A stretch of 9,881 nucleotides of DNA, from IMG/VR virus record IMGVR_UViG_2675903425_000022; one strand, 5' to 3'. The notes below the pieces were generated by a model. The model searched no databases and was not told where the DNA came from. It saw only the letters and a list, made by a program, of their open reading frames with translations. Below are positions 3,129 through 9,881 of this stretch, piece after piece. How positions within the stretch are numbered: position 1 is the first letter of the stretch; every line of letters begins with the position of its first letter. Origin of the DNA: a virus. Taxonomy: Duplodnaviria > Heunggongvirae > Uroviricota > Caudoviricetes. The translations under genes were made by a program, and so were the position numbers.

Positions 3129-3321
3129 GCCCGGCACACGCTTCTGCATCAGCCAGCTTTATTCTGGTTTCCTTGCGCTGTTCTCTGGCTGACAAACGCC
3201 AGAGCAGCGCATTAGCTTTATGTATCAACCACTCTGCCAGCTCCACATCAGATAAACCGCCACGCCAGATGTGCGGACTGTTTTCGTAAACGCTCAGTGT
3301 CAATTTTTTGTCATTACTCAT
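2812..3321 (-). CDS. Hypothetical protein (169 aa) between the CII-like gene and the initiator
   Basis: ORF in the same orientation as the operon, with ATG at 3321 starting 13 nt after the stop of the YdaT-like gene. Weak Shine-Dalgarno (TGGGTAA); an alternative GTG start at 3372 would overlap the upstream gene. The translation is charged and helical-looking (MSNDKKLTLSVYENSPHIWRGGLSDVELAEWLIHKANALLWRL...). No family recognised. Confidence 0.4.
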   Translation of the reverse strand: MSNDKKLTLSVYENSPHIWRGGLSDVELAEWLIHKANALLWRLSAREQRKETRIKLADAEACAGLIEDYTNLGISSAESDPIQPLSRESIQHAGCMAHLVTARQHEVGIGSLPAGYSLIPELVEARKSVQKKRDDALQLLREHYGAIPECEQRRYPEGYEWMQSLFEVR

Positions 3322-3334
3322 ATTTATTACCCAA

Positions 3335-3825
3335 TTAATGCACAGCCAGAGTGTTTCCTGCCGGGCCACCACGATTCATCTGATCGAACAGAACGATCGC
3401 TGATGCAACGAAATCATCAATATCTTTCACCAGCCGTTCCTTCGTCTCTACCAACTCCCGAAAATAAGCGGAACTGTGGCTGCGCATTCGGGCCACCAGC
3501 GGAGGCGGCATCGCTTTTTCGATCGCTGGTAACAACGCCTGAATTTTTTTAACCGCATCAGGAGTGTCTTTCTCCACCCAGCGGAAAATTTTCTGAGTAT
3601 TGCGAGCCATGGCTTCCGGATGGCTGTCGTCATACAGTTCCGGGAACGTCATTCCCAGCTCGAAATACGCTTNNNNNNNNNNNNNNNNNNNNNNNNNNNN
3701 NNNNNNNNNNNNNNNNNNNNNNGCTCGAAATACGCTTTGGTAATTTTCGCAGCCGGTACTTTTTCGCCGTCCGGATGCGCCCAGGCATTCATCGCCATGC
3801 GGATGTGTTCATGCTTGATTTTCAT
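3335..3825 (-). CDS. ydaT: YdaT-like (CII-analogous) regulatory protein; ORF interrupted by a 50-N gap
   Basis: ATG at 3825 (top CAT 3823-3825) with GGAG 7 nt upstream. N-terminus is MKIKHEHIRMAMNAWAHPDGEKVPAAKITKAYFE up to the gap, and the translation resumes after it as LGMTFPELYDDSHPEAM...GNTLAVH. Removing the gap and one copy of the duplicated 15-mer gives a continuous 426-nt ORF (141 aa), the size recalled for YdaT. Position after the Cro-like gene fits. Confidence 0.7.
3673..3722. other. Run of 50 N (scaffold gap), flanked by identical 15-mers
   Basis: gctcgaaatacgctt occurs at 3658-3672 and again at 3723-3737, immediately on either side of the N run. Confidence 0.95.
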
Positions 3826-4189: not shown

Positions 4190-4591
4190 ATGATGAGCGC
4201 CCTAGAAGTATCTATGTACAGAATCAGCAAGCTTCTTCAGGAAACTGGATGGAGCCAGGCTGAGCTTGCCCGTAGAATTGGTGTGACACAACAAACTGTT
4301 CAACAATGGGTCAGCGGTAAGGCTACACCTAAAGCCTCAAGTTTGGATAAACTGGTTGAGGTTTCAGGGCATCCATTGCATTGGTTTTTATTGCCTCCTG
4401 AAGAGTGTGAGCAAATTTTCACCCCTGACACGATGAAAATTGGTCCTCGCCAACGCGAACTGCTCCAAGCTTTTAGTGCGTTTCCTGAGGAAGACCAAGA
4501 AAAAATGCTTCAAGAAATCAAAGACAAGAAAAAATCAATGGAAGAAACCATTGCTAGGTGGCTGGCGGCACAAAAAAGCCGCCGGGCGTGA
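4190..4591 (+). CDS. paaR2: HTH (XRE-family) transcriptional regulator, PaaR2-like; occupies the CI-repressor position
   Basis: 133-aa ORF with HTH (SQAELARRIGVTQQTVQQWVSGK) and no LexA-type peptidase domain. It is first in a three-gene operon with a 63-aa antitoxin and a ParE toxin, matching the paaR2-paaA2-parE2 arrangement recalled from E. coli O157 prophage CP-933P. There is no Shine-Dalgarno before ATG 4190, so it may be leaderless or start at ATG 4214. Confidence 0.75.
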   Translation: MMSALEVSMYRISKLLQETGWSQAELARRIGVTQQTVQQWVSGKATPKASSLDKLVEVSGHPLHWFLLPPEECEQIFTPDTMKIGPRQRELLQAFSAFPEEDQEKMLQEIKDKKKSMEETIARWLAAQKSRRA

Positions 4592-4618
4592 CCACAGTAC
4601 AAGAAGAGGAGTTATGCC

Positions 4619-4810
4619 ATGGGTACAGCCCTTTCTCCGATAGTTTCAGAATTCGAAACTACCGAACAAGAAAACAGTTACAACGAATGGTTGCGCACTA
4701 AAGTAACGTCAAGCCTTGCAGACACTCGCCCCGCAATTCCACATGACGAGGTAATGGCTGAAATGGAAAATCTTATTGCTCAAATTGCTGTAACTAACAA
4801 GAGCGAGTAA
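4619..4810 (+). CDS. paaA2: Small antitoxin of the ParE module (PaaA2-like)
   Basis: 63-aa acidic ORF (MGTALSPIVSEFETTEQENSYNEWLRTKV...). GAGGA 8 nt upstream of the ATG; its stop overlaps the toxin start (TAATG). Size and position match PaaA2 as recalled. Confidence 0.7.
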   Translation: MGTALSPIVSEFETTEQENSYNEWLRTKVTSSLADTRPAIPHDEVMAEMENLIAQIAVTNKSE

Positions 4811-5097
4811 TGTTACCCATTTTATGGCTACCGTCTGCTCGCGATGATTTGCGCCAGATCATAACTTACATCGCCAAGGAGAACCCACCGGCAGCACGTA
4901 GACTAAAAATACGCATTGAAACATCGGTATTACCTCTATCTGAGCATCCGTACTTATATCCACCAAGCGAACGGGTTTCTGGATTGAGAGAGATCGTGAC
5001 CCACCCTAACTACATAATCCTGTACAGAGTAGCTGCTTCAAGCATTGAGATTGTAAGCGTGACACATTCTCGGCGACAATTTCCCTTCTCTATCTGA
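4810..5097 (+). CDS. parE2: ParE/RelE-family toxin (ParE2-like)
   Basis: 95-aa ORF translationally coupled to the antitoxin. Sequence ...RQIITYIAKENPPAARRLKIRIETSVLPLSEHPYLYPPSERVSGLREIVTHPNYIILYRV... is typical of ParE/RelE-fold toxins. Confidence 0.8.
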   Translation: MLPILWLPSARDDLRQIITYIAKENPPAARRLKIRIETSVLPLSEHPYLYPPSERVSGLREIVTHPNYIILYRVAASSIEIVSVTHSRRQFPFSI

Positions 5098-5188: not shown

Positions 5189-5374
5189 AGATTACATACA
5201 CCAACCACCCACCCCGCCCCACAGAACGCCGGGCAATACTTCGAGTTACCAAGCAGTGGTCAGGGGGTAAGTAGCCAGCCCGAGGCGTATGAACATGACG
5301 GCAGGGTTCAACTTTAATAACTATGCAGCAGGTTTTTGTTCCGCTACCCGGCGTTAAGGGGAAATGAGGTCAAC

Positions 5375-5530
5375 ATGGATACTATCGATCTTGGCAACAA
5401 CGAATCTCTGGTGTACGGCGTGTTTCCCAACCAGGACGGTACATTCACCGCGATGACGTATACCAAAAGCAAAACGTTTAAAACCGAAAATGGTGCCCGT
5501 CGCTGGCTGGAAAGAAACTCAGGTGAGTGA
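5375..5530 (+). CDS. YdfA/YdaF-like small protein (51 aa, DUF1391-type)
   Basis: ATG at 5375 with GAGG 7 nt upstream; MDTIDLGNNESLVYGVFPNQDGTFTAMTYTKSKTFKTENGARRWLERNSGE. It is the first gene after the second operator, as ydfA is in the Qin dicB operon (recalled). Confidence 0.7.
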   Translation: MDTIDLGNNESLVYGVFPNQDGTFTAMTYTKSKTFKTENGARRWLERNSGE

Positions 5531-5531
5531 T

Positions 5532-5660
5532 ATGGATTTCGACACAATCATGGAAAAGGCTTACGAAGAATACTTCGAAGGCCTTGCCGAAGGCGAGGAA
5601 GCTCTCAGCTTCAGTGAGTTTAAACAGGCGCTTTCCAGTTCGGCAAAATCTAACGACTAA
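5532..5660 (+). CDS. YdfB-like small protein (42 aa); absent from the supplied ORF track because of its size
   Basis: ATG at 5532 lies 1 nt after the upstream stop, with AGGTGAG upstream. Translation MDFDTIMEKAYEEYFEGLAEGEEALSFSEFKQALSSSAKSND ends at TAA 5658-5660. Confidence 0.6.
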   Translation: MDFDTIMEKAYEEYFEGLAEGEEALSFSEFKQALSSSAKSND

Positions 5661-5671
5661 CGGAGTTAAAG

Positions 5672-6210
5672 ATGGAATTTAAAGATTTACTAAAAGAAAT
5701 CCAGGAAATTGCAGCACATGCACTTCACCAACGTCTGAACGAAGTTGAATTAGAATCTGCAACGAAGAAATACATTGATAATATGGCTCGTAATGTGCGC
5801 GATGCGTTTACCGGATTGTACTCTGTTTCGGTAACAAACAACCAGAATACTGAAGAAACTGCAAAGCGGATTGCCTCGGTGATGGGTTTTCATGTCGAGG
5901 AAAAGTATTCAAAAAAAGAATTCTGGAAAACTACAAAAAAATTGCAGAGCGAGAACTGTCATCTCCTGCGGCAATCGCTTCTTTCTATGAGGAAAGTTAT
6001 TCAGATGACACAGGATTACCGGAACTGCTCTCATTACTTGAAAAATTCGGAATTATCATGAAAGGGACTGCGTCGGCGGATTTCACATACTCAATGATGG
6101 CTGCTGATGGAGAGCCTTTTCCTCCCGAACTTAAAATAACCCCCGGCAATCATCCGATGGTAACAATAAGAGCAATAGAGAATTACTGGTTTAATCCAGT
6201 TCAACAATAG
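5672..6210 (+). pseudogene. ydfC-position gene split by a -1 frameshift at A7 runs (apparent pseudogene, sequencing error, or programmed slip)
   Basis: Frame-2 ORF 5672-6061 (GGAG 6 nt upstream) reads naturally to ...EEKYSKKEF, then becomes Cys/His-rich and low-complexity. The -1 frame is open from 5854 to TAG 6208-6210 and reads naturally (IAERELSSPAAIASFYEESYSDDTGLPELLSLLEKFGIIMKGTASADF...NYWFNPVQQ). Two A7 runs (5911-5917, 5935-5941) sit at the transition. Confidence 0.5.
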
Positions 6211-6247
6211 TTGGTCTTTGCAATATTTTTAATGGGCCACTACGCCC

Positions 6248-6433
6248 TTAATCTCGGGCGGCGTTTAACTCTTTATTCAGTAAATCAGACTGATACTGAT
6301 TTGGCTTTGTAATGATACTGTCAAGTTTTGATATATGAAATTCAACATGTTCTGGACAGTTAAAAATGTAATAACCGCCCTTCTCTAAAAAGCCAGAAAG
6401 AGCGTTACAGGCAGGGCATGGTTTGTTTGGCAT
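6248..6433 (-). CDS. Small zinc-ribbon protein (61 aa), opposite in orientation to the surrounding operon
   Basis: ATG at 6433 (top CAT 6431-6433) with GGAGGA 5 nt upstream. Translation MPNKPCPACNALSGFLEKGGYYIFNCPEHVEFHISKLDSIITKPNQYQSDLLNKELNAARD has CPAC...x16...CPEH, a zinc-ribbon-like pattern. Confidence 0.55.
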   Translation of the reverse strand: MPNKPCPACNALSGFLEKGGYYIFNCPEHVEFHISKLDSIITKPNQYQSDLLNKELNAARD

Positions 6434-6768
6434 TTTATCCTCCATTAAGGGCTGAATTAAAAATGGAGACCAACACGCTGCTACGTGTGGTCGTGCGCCG
6501 GACACAGATAAGAATCCGGCACTGACAGTTTACTGAAAGGATATATCCCTGAAAAGTCAGGGCATAACACGAAAGTGCACGGCGAAGTCCTTCTCCCTTA
6601 GAGCCGTCGTTAAATTTAATTCGACCGTGCGCTTCCGGTTGTGGCAATCCGCGAAATGGCGCGGCGGTAAGTATGGCGGGGTTATTCTTTCCCCGTTGAG
6701 GACACCGGGTTGTCAGGTTGACCATACGCTTAAGTGACAACCCCGCTGCAACGCCCTCTGTTATCAAT

Positions 6769-6821
6769 ATTCTGGTGACATTTGGCGGTATCAGTTTTAC
6801 TCCGTAACTGCTCTGCCGCCC
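6769..6821 (+). ncRNA. dicF: DicF small RNA homolog (53 nt)
   Basis: ATTCTGGTGACATTTGGCGGTATCAGTTTTACTCCGTAACTGCTCTGCCGCCC differs at 3 of 53 positions from the K-12 DicF sequence as I recall it (TTTCTGGTGACGTTTGGCGGTATCAGTTTTACTCCGTGACTGCTCTGCCGCCC). It is followed by TTTTTT and located just upstream of dicB, as in Qin. Confidence 0.8.
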
Positions 6822-6833
6822 TTTTTTAAAAGT

Positions 6834-6988
6834 GAATTTTGTGATGCGGTGAATGCGGCTCAGCGCACGCGGAACAGTTAAATCGGTAAAGCGGTCATTT
6901 GCTGAGTAACGAGAATGCTCTGTATCCGGCGTTAATTGTTAACTGGTTAACGTCACCTGGAGGCACCAGGCACCGCATCACAAAATTC
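6834..6988 (+). promoter_or_regulatory. Long-range perfect 18-bp inverted repeat (extendable to about 21 bp with one G-U) enclosing 119 nt; candidate RNase III processing duplex between dicF and dicB
   Basis: GAATTTTGTGATGCGGTG (6834-6851) is the exact reverse complement of CACCGCATCACAAAATTC (6971-6988). The 3' arm ends 6 nt upstream of the dicB Shine-Dalgarno (GAGGA 6995-6999). Confidence 0.5.
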
Positions 6989-7006
6989 ATTGTTGAGGAC
7001 GCGATA

Positions 7007-7195
7007 ATGGAAAAGTTATCATGTAATGCCAGCACGTCTGAACTTCGTTTCGAAATTGGCGTTATCACTGGAGACAAAACATTTATTGAAGACGCCATTA
7101 AGCAGAGAAAACTCGAGCAGGACCTGTTAAATGAAGTATGCATTCCTTCAATGCTGGCTCGTCTGGACCTGCTGCAAAAAGGATATAAACAATGA
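7007..7195 (+). CDS. dicB: DicB-like cell-division inhibitor (62 aa)
   Basis: MEKLSCNASTSELRFEIGVITGDKTFIEDAIKQRKLEQDLLNEVCIPSMLARLDLLQKGYKQ aligns along its length with K-12 DicB as recalled (...FEIGVTISNPVFTEDAINKRKQERELLNKICIVSMLARLRL...). GAGGA 7 nt upstream of the ATG; directly downstream of dicF. Confidence 0.85.
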   Translation: MEKLSCNASTSELRFEIGVITGDKTFIEDAIKQRKLEQDLLNEVCIPSMLARLDLLQKGYKQ

Positions 7196-7383
7196 ATACA
7201 ACATTTGCACTCGTTCTGACAGTTTATCTTGTTTCCGGCGAATCTCTTGAGCTGGTGACTGGCTTATACGGTTCAATGAAAGAATGCATGGCTGCAGCAG
7301 CAGAACAAAAAATTCCCGGTAACTGTTATCCGGTAGATAAAACTACTCACACTAATAATAACGAAATACCGGCAGGACTTTAA
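7192..7383 (+). CDS. YdfD-like small protein (63 aa) with hydrophobic N-terminal segment
   Basis: ATG overlaps the dicB stop (ATGA at 7192-7195). Translation MNTTFALVLTVYLVSGESLELVTGLYGSMKECMAAAAEQKIPGNCYPVDKTTHTNNNEIPAGL. Position matches ydfD after dicB in Qin (recalled). Confidence 0.6.
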   Translation: MNTTFALVLTVYLVSGESLELVTGLYGSMKECMAAAAEQKIPGNCYPVDKTTHTNNNEIPAGL

Positions 7384-7476
7384 AACAGCACCGTAATTAA
7401 TATCCGGTTTCATTTTTATATGCCAGCAATGGCAGGGATTTGTTCACCCTTAAATCTGTAATGAGGTTAAAACACA

Positions 7477-9881
7477 ATGAGTAAAATCTTTATTTGCGCT
7501 GCTATTCCTGACGAACAGGCCATAAAAGAAGATAGCGCTGTTGCGGTGGCCACTGCCATTGAAGCCGGTGATGAGCGTCGCGCACGCGCAAAATTTCACT
7601 GGCAATTTCTGGAGCAATTCCCGGCAGCTCAGGACTGCGCTTATAAATTTATTGTCTGCGAGGATAAACCCGGCATACCCCGCCCTGCCCTCGATTCCTG
7701 GGATACCGAATATATGCAGGAAAACCGCTGGGATGAGGAGTCAGCTTCCTTTGTACCGGTCGAACCAGAATCCGATCCGATGAACGTCAATTTTGACAAG
7801 CTGTCCCCTGAAGTACAGAACGCAGTCCTGGTTAAATTCGACACATGCGAAAACATCACCGTTGATATGGTGATTAGCGCACAGGAATTACTACAGGAAG
7901 ACATGGCAACATTCGGCGGACATATCGTTGAAGCGTTGATGAAAATGCCAGAAGTTAACGCCATGTATCCTGAACTTAAACTGCATGCCATCGGGTGGGT
8001 TAAGCATAAATGTGAGCCTGGCGCTAAATGGCCTGAAATTCAGGCAGAGATGCGCATCTGGAAAAAACGTCGCGAAGGTGAACGCAAGGAAACCGGAAAA
8101 TACACGTCTGTTGTTGATCTCACCCGCGCCAGAGTCAACCAACAGAACACTGAAAACGCTGCTGAAAAAACCGGGGCTGTCACTGTTGCCATTCGCCGCG
8201 AATACAAACAGACATGGAAAACACTCGACAATGAACTGGCCTGCGCCCTCTGGCCCGGTGATGTGGATGCAGGAAACATTGACGGTACCATCCATCGCTG
8301 GGCGACAAATGAGGTTATCGACAAGGATCGCGAAGACTGGAAGCGTATCTCAGCATCAATGCGCAAACAGCCCGAAGCACTTGGCTATGACCGTCAGACT
8401 ATTTTTGGCCTTGTTCGCGAACGTCCGATCGATATTCACAAAGATCCCGTTGCACTGAACAAATATATCAGTGAATACCTGACGACAAAGGGCGTGTTTG
8501 AACATGAAGAAACAGACCAGAGCTCTACTGATGCTCTCCAGCCGTCAGCAGCACAAACTGCTCCAGTGGAGACGGCAGAATCCGATACTCAAAAAAATGA
8601 AATCCTGGTGGAAGCTGAACCATCTGTAGAGCGTGAAGGACCATTTTATTTCGTCTTTACCGATAAGGGCGGGGAAAAATACGGCAGGGCAAACAAACTT
8701 TCTGGTCTGGACAAGGCGCTGGCTGCCGGCGGTACCGAAATCTCAAAAGAAGAATATTTTGCCCGAAAAAATGGCACATACACGGGCTTACCGCAAAATG
8801 TGGATACCGCTGAAGATTCCGAACAATCAGAGCCGGTAAAAGTTACCGCTGACGAAGTAAACAAAATTATGCAGGCAGCCAATATCAGCCAGCCTGACGC
8901 CGATAAATTGCTTGCTGCATCACGTGGTGAATTTGTTGAAGGGATTAGCGACCCGAATGATCCGAAATGGGTGAAAGGGATCCAGAGTCGCGACGCTGAG
9001 GACCAGAATCAGCCCAACGTGAAACAAAATGAGCCAGAAGCGGAACAAAACAGCCCGGATACGCAACAAAACGGGCCAGAAGAACAACAACCAGAACCAG
9101 CAGTGCAACAGGAACTGGAAAAAGTTTGCACCGCATGCGGTCAGACCGGTGGCGGCAACTGTCCTGACTGTGGTGCGGTGATGGGGAACGCAACCTACCT
9201 GGAAACATTCGATGAAGAGAATCAGGCTGAAGCTCAGAAAAATGATCCGGAGGAAATGGAAGGCACTGAACATCTGCACAAGGAGAACACTGGCAGCGAT
9301 CAGTATCACGCCAGCGATAATAAAACTGGCGAAACAGCAAATCCCTTAATTAAAGTGAACGGTCATCATGAAATCTCATCCACCAGCAGGTTGTGGCACC
9401 ATCTGATGATTGACCTTGAAACAATGGGAAAAAATCCTGATGCGCCAATAAACTCTATAGCCGGTAAGTTTTTTGATCCGGCAACCGGAGAGATGGGGCC
9501 AGAATTCAGCAAAACTATCGATCTGGAAACCGCAGGTGGGGTCATCGATCGGGACACCATTAAGTGGTGGCTGAAACAGTCACGCGAAGCACAATCCTCC
9601 ATTCTGACCGATGAAATCACGTTGGATGATGCACTGCTGCAATTCCGGGAATTTATCGACGAAAACTCCGGTGAATTTTTTGTTCAGGTCTGGGGTAACG
9701 GTGCAACTTTCGACAACGTGATTTTACGCCGTTCATATGAACGGCAGGGGATCCCCTGCCCGTGGCGTTACACCAATGATCGCGATGTAAGAACGATGGT
9801 TGCTCTGGGACTGGTGATGGATTTCGACGCAAGAACGACTATTCCATTCGAAGGTGAACGCCATAACGCCCTGCACGATGC
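7477..9881 (+). CDS. recE: RecE-like (exodeoxyribonuclease VIII-like) large multidomain protein, 5' part only; includes a Cys4 zinc ribbon and DEDDh 3'-5' exonuclease motifs; continues past window end
   Basis: Frame 1 is open from ATG 7477 (TGAGGT upstream) to the window end, 801 codons, verified row by row. It contains KLLAASRGEFVEGISDPNDPKWVKGIQ, which I recall from RecE; CTACGQTGGGNCPDC (9127-9171); and DnaQ-like motifs DLET (9412-9423), GNGATFD (9694-9714) and HNALHD (9862-9879). The ORF track omits it because it has no stop within the window. Confidence 0.65.
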   Translation, partial: MSKIFICAAIPDEQAIKEDSAVAVATAIEAGDERRARAKFHWQFLEQFPAAQDCAYKFIVCEDKPGIPRPALDSWDTEYMQENRWDEESASFVPVEPESDPMNVNFDKLSPEVQNAVLVKFDTCENITVDMVISAQELLQEDMATFGGHIVEALMKMPEVNAMYPELKLHAIGWVKHKCEPGAKWPEIQAEMRIWKKRREGERKETGKYTSVVDLTRARVNQQNTENAAEKTGAVTVAIRREYKQTWKTLDNELACALWPGDVDAGNIDGTIHRWATNEVIDKDREDWKRISASMRKQPEALGYDRQTIFGLVRERPIDIHKDPVALNKYISEYLTTKGVFEHEETDQSSTDALQPSAAQTAPVETAESDTQKNEILVEAEPSVEREGPFYFVFTDKGGEKYGRANKLSGLDKALAAGGTEISKEEYFARKNGTYTGLPQNVDTAEDSEQSEPVKVTADEVNKIMQAANISQPDADKLLAASRGEFVEGISDPNDPKWVKGIQSRDAEDQNQPNVKQNEPEAEQNSPDTQQNGPEEQQPEPAVQQELEKVCTACGQTGGGNCPDCGAVMGNATYLETFDEENQAEAQKNDPEEMEGTEHLHKENTGSDQYHASDNKTGETANPLIKVNGHHEISSTSRLWHHLMIDLETMGKNPDAPINSIAGKFFDPATGEMGPEFSKTIDLETAGGVIDRDTIKWWLKQSREAQSSILTDEITLDDALLQFREFIDENSGEFFVQVWGNGATFDNVILRRSYERQGIPCPWRYTNDRDVRTMVALGLVMDFDARTTIPFEGERHNALHD

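Follow-up and report, generated by a model that had tools for sequence, protein, structure and literature searches.

The window (the whole stretch of phage DNA analysed, 9,881 nucleotides) carries a genuine protein-coding gene for a small zinc-ribbon protein on its minus strand, and DNA alignment identifies this copy as a nonsense-truncated allele, which encodes 61 amino acids instead of 80. Its convergent neighbour, the gene at the ydfC position, is identified in the same way as frameshifted. By their distribution in E. coli genomes, the zinc-ribbon gene and the C-terminal domain of this forward gene are strictly co-inherited and exchanged together, and comparison between prophages shows the slot that they occupy to be hypervariable behind a shared 5' module. 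The annotation of the gene and its Ribo-seq support were already known, and the gene falls into a familiar class, that of small accessory genes in lambdoid prophages, of which it is an uncharacterised example. New here are its truncation, the accompanying lesion in its partner, its exact match in occurrence with the C-terminal domain of the forward gene, and the slot with its common module; these points are useful if not very surprising.

The zinc-ribbon gene is found in about 7.6% of complete E. coli genomes (411/5,426), mainly those of Shiga-toxin-producing strains, and adjoins dicF/dicB, two genes with effects on cell division, resistance to phages and the virulence of EHEC. Recognition of the common 61-aa form as a truncated allele with a frameshifted partner guards against reading it as an intact micro-gene, and the intact 80-aa alleles of ETEC-type and A19-type prophages are better experimental targets. 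The pattern of the slot, in which unrelated reverse ORFs follow a common expression module and the forward C-terminal domain varies with them, makes it a testable place for new prophage accessory functions.

Location, annotation and translation signals

6248–6433, minus strand: zinc-ribbon CDS including the stop, 61 aa (ORF list, RefSeq, PHROG match, dN/dS and Ribo-seq)
6438–6443, minus strand: Shine-Dalgarno sequence GGAGGA of the zinc-ribbon ORF, 4 nt 5' of the ATG
6770–6821, plus strand: dicF sRNA gene (Rfam RF00039, 76.9 bits, E 4.7e-16)

The zinc-ribbon ORF starts with ATG at 6433-6431 and ends with TAA at 6250-6248, and its product (MPNKPCPACNALSGFLEKGGYYIFNCPEHVEFHISKLDSIITKPNQYQSDLLNKELNAARD) contains the motif C6-P-A-C9, x16, C26-P-E-H29. 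The ORF list and the sequence agree with the initial annotation of this DNA, which described a 61-aa minus-strand ORF with CPAC-x16-CPEH behind a strong GGAGGA site (6443-6438). For the same gene in strain Sakai, a Shine-Dalgarno sequence 4 bp upstream with a dG of -6.3 is tabulated in PMC5597208 (S4). The lower limit of 6211 first given to the ORF is wrong, as the stop ends at 6248 and positions 6211-6247 are part of an ancestral 3' remnant. The gene is flanked by the ydfC-position gene (end at 6210) and dicF and runs antiparallel to the operon, as had been described, with a GC content of 0.355 compared with 0.39-0.52 in the flanks. It had also been described, correctly, as absent from Qin; in K-12 Qin, ydfC is followed by 340 nt and then by dicF.

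A family assignment, which had been held impossible, is available, as the protein has an identical member and a full-length profile match in phrog_10133 (PHROGs v4), a family without assigned function. It was already annotated as RefSeq WP_001133046.1 in PV15-279, Sakai and EDL933, the gene being ECs1061 (ECs_1061) of prophage Sp4 in Sakai and EDL933_RS06115 in EDL933, where the prophage lies at the same yccA site as Sp4. Complete E. coli genomes with the ORF contain one copy each. Three other gene models were rejected. Against an 85-aa version of the ORF with a GTG start and a 135-aa PGAP call in ETEC6334 stand the conservation of the Shine-Dalgarno sequence and ATG and the use of this ATG as start by unrelated reverse ORFs, while a 110-aa antisense ORF (6435-6767) formerly annotated in EDL933 has a dN/dS of 1.19 versus Qin.

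Evidence for coding and expression

As the window holds 54 ORFs of at least 50 aa, the length of the zinc-ribbon ORF is by itself not beyond chance. Its frame is under purifying selection, with a dN/dS (Nei-Gojobori, against relatives 10-22% different in DNA) of 0.10-0.26, versus 0.47-1.42 in the other five frames. Residues C6, C9, C26 and H29 are invariant across all clusters and loci, down to a 48%-identical 91-aa protein (P0005), and the two knuckles are separated by 16 residues (17 in P0005). The phrog_10133 profile is matched with an E value of 7.3e-48 (161.6 bits, residues 1-61 on positions 5-65 of 65), and P0005 also matches it (2.7e-15).

Expression data are available from Hücker et al. 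2017 (PMC5597208), who subjected strain Sakai to strand-specific RNA-seq and Ribo-seq, with ECs1061 in a control set of 250 short annotated genes. In LB the gene has 12.2 RPKM in RNA-seq and 68.2 RPKM in Ribo-seq (ribosome coverage value 5.58, ORF coverage 0.51), and in BHI 33.8 and 30.8 RPKM, respectively (ribosome coverage value 1.04, ORF coverage 0.69; PMC5597208 S2). Under cold/salt stress the values fall to 9.6 for RNA and 0.7 for Ribo-seq (ribosome coverage value 0.07, ORF coverage 0.10; PMC5597208). The LB and BHI values are above the translation thresholds of that study, and the reads map unambiguously because the ORF is single-copy. Both cultures were grown without induction, and the data show low-level transcription and translation of the gene in O157 lysogens that are not induced. 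The minus-strand transcript proposed as a check by the initial annotation is thus present in published data, and the Cys/His positions, the other point in question, are kept in relatives down to 48% identity. With conserved homologues, transcription and translation all found, the reading of the ORF as a genuine small gene with zinc-ribbon ligands is borne out by dN/dS, the invariant ligands, the PHROG match and Ribo-seq together.

Homologues and predicted structure

Family phrog_10133 is tiny: word-indexed searches of 5.8 billion proteins gave only five clusters at 90% identity, with members in Escherichia and in some Salmonella. Its profile of 65 positions represents the truncated form, while the intact diverged members have 80-91 aa. 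An exhaustive HMMER search of 1.84 billion representatives added one further true relative (P0005) and a fragment. Of the two top-scoring HMMER matches, P0004 was rejected on inspection as a long tandem-repeat protein, and P0003 (1,964 aa, 11 matched stretches) was rejected from its repeat-like match pattern alone. A tblastn search of the 61-aa protein against 50,697 phage genomes gave no match, and a scan of GTDB species-representative genomes gave no confirmed locus.

An AF2 model of the 84-aa relative P0002, built from six sequences (mean pLDDT 71.8), has four short strands, at pLDDT 82-85, round the two knuckles; residues 50-65 form a helix, and the tail contains a strand predicted with low confidence. 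On this model a C2-CH zinc ribbon makes up the N-terminal half of the protein and is followed by a helix, to which intact members add a conserved tail at the C-terminus. The 61-aa protein matches nothing in Pfam or NCBIfam at E <= 1, including the Lar family PF14354 and the other zinc-ribbon HMMs of these collections, and nothing in PADLOC. The best match of a PDB sequence search is a eukaryotic zinc-finger at E 0.24, which is meaningless, and fold comparison gave no significant structural neighbour (BFVD match at E 0.59). The regulator, anti-defence and toxin-antitoxin roles suggested for the gene at first are supported by no Pfam, NCBIfam, PADLOC, PDB-sequence or fold match. A literature search on ECs1061, WP_001133046, A0A0D7C2N0 and phrog_10133 found no functional study.

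Among known proteins, the Lar/RalR restriction-alleviation family (PF14354, in the early-left region of Rac) resembles the zinc-ribbon protein in its small size, its two knuckles (CPxC ... CPxH) and its lambdoid early-left location. However, the protein of the window has no Pfam match at E <= 1, uses His as the fourth ligand and is encoded against the operon, and the sole structural echo of Lar/RalR is the non-significant BFVD match mentioned above.

Truncation of the window copy

6248–6250, minus strand: premature stop TAA, codon 62 (DNA alignment and translations of 14 IMG/VR loci)
6191–6247, minus strand: ancestral 3' remnant of 18 in-frame codons (GRSGPLKILQRPTIVELD) plus the original stop at 6193-6191 (translation past the stop)

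Codon 62 encodes serine in the relatives (TCA in four lineages, TCG in L007), and the alignment at this place reads GAT-TAA-GGG in the window, GAT-TCA-GGT or GCG-TCA-GG in the four lineages and GCG-TCG-GGC in L007. Judged from this alignment, the stop arose from one C-to-A substitution in the conserved codon for Ser62. The length of 61 aa is due to this nonsense mutation (TCA to TAA at 6250-6248), with which a conserved tail of 19 residues is lost from the 80 aa of the intact form. In the longer relatives, which include P0002 (95% identical), strain A19, the ETEC6334 type, P0008 and P0005 (91 aa), the tail following ...AARD reads SG..GP(I/L)..L.RP..VELD, and its dN/dS among intact relatives is 0.13-0.22. 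Diverged homologues are all 80-91 aa long, and 61 aa is found only in near-identical copies of the window allele. The final 20 nt of the ancestral remnant overlap the end of the forward gene.

When a 61-nt probe centred on the mutation was used for an allele census, the exact TAA form was present in 383/386 complete E. coli genomes with the window sequence type, and the TCA version in 0. The IMG/VR loci divide in the same manner, with the stop in 8/8 of the O157 type and a zinc-ribbon gene without it in 6/6 of the ETEC type. The truncated allele is 100% identical across several STEC serotypes, including O157:H7, O121:H19, O103 and O45:H2.

The convergent forward gene

5672–6210, plus strand: convergent forward gene of the phrog_1363 type, split by a frameshift (protein and DNA alignments)
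5935–5941, plus strand: A7 tract, the frameshift site; A8 in the intact A19 and L027 alleles (alignment)

The forward gene is present in the window as two halves, a 129-aa ORF (5672-6061) and a C-terminal frame (5884-6210, with an ATG at 6058), while its protein is intact in relatives at 179-186 aa. The A7 tract, one A shorter than in the intact alleles, forms the heptamer A_AAA_AAA in frame 0. The protein comprises an N-terminal domain (MEFKDLP...NVRDAF.GLY) and a C-terminal domain (KEFWK...GIIM.GTA.ADF...PPEL.ITPGNHP..IRAI..WFNP). Nothing significant was found for it in the antitoxin, immunity and defence families of Pfam, NCBIfam and PADLOC, and its AF2 model (pLDDT 47.7) is too poor for use.

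Both lesions occur in 8/8 O157-type IMG/VR loci and neither of them in 6/6 ETEC-type loci, A19, L011 and L027, and the cassette of L027, free of both, is 97.7% identical to that of the window. The double lesion counts as n=1, because the O157 type is one clonal allele. It is possible, if doubtful, that the window copy is a decaying pseudogene without remaining function, whatever the ancestral 80-aa protein did, a reading that cuts across all others given below. The nonsense mutation deletes a tail that purifying selection maintains in relatives, the partner gene carries a frameshift, a ydaT-like gene in the window looks disrupted too, and Sp4-type prophages are regarded as defective (PMC5069750), all of which favour decay. 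However, the zinc ribbon and the helix are intact and still translated, no lesions have been added (identity over the 61-nt test stretch in 383/386 genomes), and the allele has spread at 100% identity over several STEC serotypes.

The DNA of the forward C-terminal domain (5950-6190) and that of the zinc-ribbon body (6251-6421) are each found in 411/5,426 genomes, at 413 places, and fall into the same identity bands (386/1/24). The pair is also kept at 48% identity in loci L007-L010, which have different flanks and a forward gene devoid of the N-terminal domain. The 3' ends of the two genes overlap by ~20-119 bp in intact alleles. A second cassette type combines a 212-aa forward protein (phrog_2151) with a 69-aa reverse protein (phrog_4274), each present at full coverage in 597 genomes. 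The pairing has two irregular members. In L027 the forward partner is intact, but ATA replaces the ATG start of the zinc-ribbon gene, and ETEC4090 (L031) contains a reverse ORF behind the same 5' module with no phrog_1363-type forward neighbour, which argues against universal pairing.

Predicted promoter and leader, and a possible antisense role

6527–6555, minus strand: predicted sigma-70 promoter (-35 TTTTCA at 6555-6550, 17-nt spacer, -10 TAAACT at 6532-6527)
6434–6520, minus strand: inferred 5' leader of 87 nt with three hairpins (predicted fold)

The predicted promoter matches 8/12 consensus positions, which is under the threshold of the scanner, and coincides with a BPROM promoter (LDF 4.52) located 122 bp upstream of the ECs1061 start (PMC5597208 S4). 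The transcript would start near 6520, which corresponds to about 1,166,033 (plus strand) in Sakai and about 1,253,364 (plus strand) in EDL933. Among the EDL933 Cappable-seq starts listed, none belongs to this gene, and the ROSE supplement has no entry at the equivalent K-12 position. In the leader, CUCCAUU (6470-6464) is predicted to be able to pair with AAUGGAG (6446-6440), masking the Shine-Dalgarno sequence. The leader fold has -49.9 kcal/mol (z -4.6) on the minus strand and -40.5 kcal/mol (z -2.4) on the plus strand, and covariation in its hairpins is sparse and contradictory and gives no strand. No terminator is predicted near the ORF, the scanner's sole terminator-like site (6200-6185) lying past the ancestral stop, and none is listed for ECs1061 in PMC5597208 (S4).

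The promoter region and the first hairpins hardly vary across all dicF prophages, Qin included. Such invariance, even in Qin without the reverse ORF, might point to a role at the RNA level, in which the antisense transcript of the convergent promoter damps leaky early-left transcription, and hence the toxic DicF/DicB, with the ORF being secondary. The better fold of the leader on the minus strand agrees with this, and so does the missing terminator after the ORF, as transcripts would extend antisense into the forward genes. Lambda OOP RNA and P22 sar RNA are precedents for such a role. This role is nevertheless highly improbable in view of the purifying selection on the protein, its conserved metal ligands, the strong Shine-Dalgarno sequence and the ribosome occupancy, and the reason for the conserved promoter region may lie in the plus-strand dicF precursor.

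The promoter spacer contains a perfect 10-bp palindrome (GGATATATCC), a possible autoregulatory site. The AF2 model places a helix after the zinc ribbon, and small phage zinc-finger activators exist. The protein might be a regulator of the Ogr/Delta kind, a small zinc-finger protein that binds DNA or RNA and controls phage or host transcription. The chance of this is very slim, as no DNA-binding or zinc-finger family of Pfam or NCBIfam matches at E <= 1, no structural neighbour is significant, and the palindrome is also found, with one mismatch, in Qin, which has no such gene.

The cassette and its hypervariable slot

5659–6491, no strand: cassette of 833 bp in place of the K-12 Qin ydfC segment (blastn of the window versus Qin)

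In blastn the window matches Qin at 97% over 5338-5658 (ydfA/ydfB) and at 86% over 6492-8242, with no match between, and the Qin segment replaced by the cassette corresponds to positions 3293-3602 of the Qin locus (L002). The presence of the gene in some prophages and its absence in a related one (Qin) accord with the moron arrangement named in the initial annotation, but it is not a simple insertion, as the 833-bp cassette replaces the ydfC region.

The only stretch of the cassette region common to many other prophages is 6422-6495, which covers the first four codons, the Shine-Dalgarno sequence and the upstream leader. In different prophages this 5' module precedes at least five unrelated reverse ORFs:

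phrog_10133, the zinc-ribbon gene
phrog_4274, 69 aa
phrog_20080, 75 aa
phrog_8894, ~100 aa, unannotated in strain RM10466
no PHROG match, 57 aa

The forward proteins (phrog_1363, 2151, 9419, 6937 and 33007) have the N-terminal domain in common and differ in their C-terminal parts.

Such a slot could hold stand-alone morons, in which case the zinc-ribbon gene would have its own role in the lysogen (superinfection exclusion, defence, anti-defence or host modulation) and its co-inheritance with the forward gene would be linkage only. The same promoter, leader, Shine-Dalgarno sequence and ATG before at least five unrelated reverse ORFs speak for this, as do the reverse ORF of L031 with no phrog_1363-type neighbour, the low GC content of the ORF relative to its flanks, and its absence in Qin. 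A moron arrangement had been suggested from the outset, and the expression in the uninduced lysogen (Sakai Ribo-seq) agrees with it, while the gene's own terminator was not found. The stand-alone role is considered unlikely, if well short of negligible, as co-occurrence with the forward C-terminal domain is exact (411/411 genomes), the pair is kept in L007-L010 despite their differing flanks, PADLOC and Pfam give no match, terminator prediction was negative, and 383 genomes tolerate the truncated allele.

A possible partner of the forward C-terminal domain

It is tentatively proposed, with a probability put somewhat below one half, that the zinc-ribbon protein, expressed in the lysogen, is the cognate partner of the forward C-terminal domain and most likely antagonises it, that it is shut off on derepression of the early-left operon, and that the O157 pair is inactivated or attenuated. 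The zinc-ribbon gene is a separate unit converging on the dicA-repressed early-left (dicBF-type) operon, and in this model the two genes would be inherited as one convergent cassette with overlapping 3' ends. Its transcript would start at the weak sigma-70 promoter (6555-6527), with a structured 87-nt leader that can mask the Shine-Dalgarno sequence. The protein made in the lysogen would then act as partner, most likely as antagonist or antidote, of a swappable forward C-terminal domain. On prophage induction, strong early-left transcription would run into the reverse gene, shut it off and free the forward product. Since each gene of the O157-type pair has a lesion, this pair has probably lost its activity or is attenuated.

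This partner model is supported by the exact 411-genome co-occurrence, the retention of the pair in L007-L010, the second cassette type, the 3' overlap and the shared lesions. It is weakened by the consideration that adjacent segments between conserved recombination flanks would be co-inherited anyway, and by the double lesion being a single event. The reverse ORF of ETEC4090 has no forward partner, and neither protein is homologous to a known antitoxin, immunity or defence family, both of which also count against the model. An essential antidote in particular fits poorly with L027, where the partner is intact yet the zinc-ribbon start is ATA. The promoter part of the model suffers from the lack of a predicted terminator and from the 8/12 consensus positions. 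Moreover, known toxin-antitoxin pairs are usually co-directional.

A wider and fairly improbable extension of the partner model is that lambdoid prophages of the dicBF type use the ydfC slot as a hot-spot of exchangeable two-gene cassettes, each encoding an early protein, with the N-terminal adaptor MEFKDLP...NVRDAF and a swappable C-terminal effector, and a convergent cognate protein expressed in the lysogen from the shared promoter and leader. Next to the cell-division inhibitors DicF and DicB, these cassettes would constitute an undescribed polymorphic system resembling effector/immunity or defence systems. The zinc-ribbon protein would represent one of its immunity types, and the O157 allele would be a relic inactivated in both genes.

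Comparison with known systems

The sieB gene of Rac is transcribed independently, runs against the early-left operon and is active in the repressed prophage, and SieB is a much larger membrane protein. The zinc-ribbon gene resembles sieB-type genes in being an opposed, lysogen-expressed gene inside the early-left operon, but shares no sequence similarity with them and encodes a smaller protein. Immunity genes of pore-forming colicins are small, lie in opposite orientation just downstream of the colicin gene and have a constitutive promoter. The likeness to the pair described here is one of architecture only, namely a conserved N-terminal part, a swappable C-terminal domain and a convergent small gene exchanged with it, whereas there is no homology and the zinc-ribbon protein has no predicted membrane helices.

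Convergent promoters within early operons are known from lambda OOP RNA and P22 sar RNA, which likewise face the early operon and give overlapping transcripts, but the transcript described here carries a conserved translated ORF. Type II antitoxins of the MqsA type carry a zinc-ribbon domain. MqsA-type antitoxins and the paaR2-paaA2-parE2 module share with the present system the close linkage, within a prophage, of a small zinc-ribbon protein and a partner gene; here, in contrast, the genes converge, and the zinc-ribbon protein has no HTH and no antitoxin match in Pfam, NCBIfam or PADLOC. A paaR2-paaA2-parE2 module lies 1.2 kb upstream in the window, and elsewhere in the window a ydaT-like gene looks disrupted.

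Shared 5' module and exchangeable reverse ORFs

A single 5' module, which consists of the leader and AATGGAGGATAAAATG (window 6422-6495, minus strand), heads unrelated small minus-strand ORFs across other dicF prophages, as compared at loci L005, L006, L029, L030, L031 and L032. The reverse ORFs found behind this module are:

phrog_4274, 69 aa
phrog_20080, 75 aa
phrog_8894, about 100 aa, which carries no annotation in strain RM10466
an ORF of 57 aa

The C-terminal part of the convergent forward gene at the ydfC position varies together with the type of reverse ORF. The zinc-ribbon gene (6248-6433, minus strand) is present in prophages of 411 complete E. coli genomes, and no copy of it was detected by tblastn among the 50,697 sequenced phage genomes of INPHARED; the prophages carrying this gene seem not to be represented among isolated phages.

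In the closest full-length allele of the zinc-ribbon gene (homologue cluster P0002, 95% identical; locus L027, positions 410-424), the start codon ATG is changed to ATA, and the sole remaining start is a weak upstream ATG (MEDK...) without a Shine-Dalgarno sequence. The partner gene of this allele is intact.

Region upstream of the zinc-ribbon gene

The predicted reverse promoter has a perfect 10-bp palindrome in its spacer (GGATATATCC; 6539-6548). All prophages carrying a reverse gene share it unchanged, and the Qin version is GGAAATATCC. This palindrome may serve as a protein-binding site. The RNA of region 6425-6565 is predicted to fold about 9 kcal/mol better from the minus strand (-49.9 kcal/mol, z -4.6) than from the plus strand (-40.5 kcal/mol, z -2.4), and a pairing in the predicted minus-strand fold masks the Shine-Dalgarno sequence.

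An ORF of 110 aa (6435-6767, minus strand) lies antisense to the dicF leader. Its counterpart in Qin is also open (111 aa), it was once annotated in EDL933 (RS06110), and PGAP joins it with the zinc-ribbon gene in strain ETEC6334 to give a protein of 135 aa. As its dN/dS is 1.19 against Qin, this ORF was rejected as a coding gene.

Forward gene and published transcript 5' ends

The forward gene (5672-6210, plus strand) is split by an A8-to-A7 change at 5935-5941, where the A7 tract is read in frame 0 as A_AAA_AAA, a classic slippery heptamer. Slippage at this tract, either of the ribosome (by -1) or during transcription, would restore the intact protein of 179 aa, so the forward gene may be only attenuated and not inactivated.

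Among the entries in supplementary file 7 of the EDL933 Cappable-seq study (PMC10469882) is a start at 1254075(+) in antisense orientation, present in 8/8 conditions, which maps to approximately 5809 (minus strand) inside the forward gene. The file also gives a 5' end at 1253115(-), which corresponds to window 6769 (plus strand), the 5' end of dicF.

Other genes in the window

The ydaT-like gene (3335-3825, minus strand) is apparently split, with its sequence divided over two ORFs (3335-3652 and 3649-3825). An indel-like discontinuity separates the window from O157:H7 strain PV15-279 at 3673-3722, where no tandem repeat was found. A three-gene module of the paaR2-paaA2-parE2 type (4190-5097, plus strand) is placed between the prophage repressor and ydfA, and comprises:

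4190-4591, plus strand, HTH repressor
4619-4810, plus strand, PaaA2-type antitoxin (PF21217, 5.6e-19)
4810-5097, plus strand, ParE toxin (PF05016, 2.9e-17)
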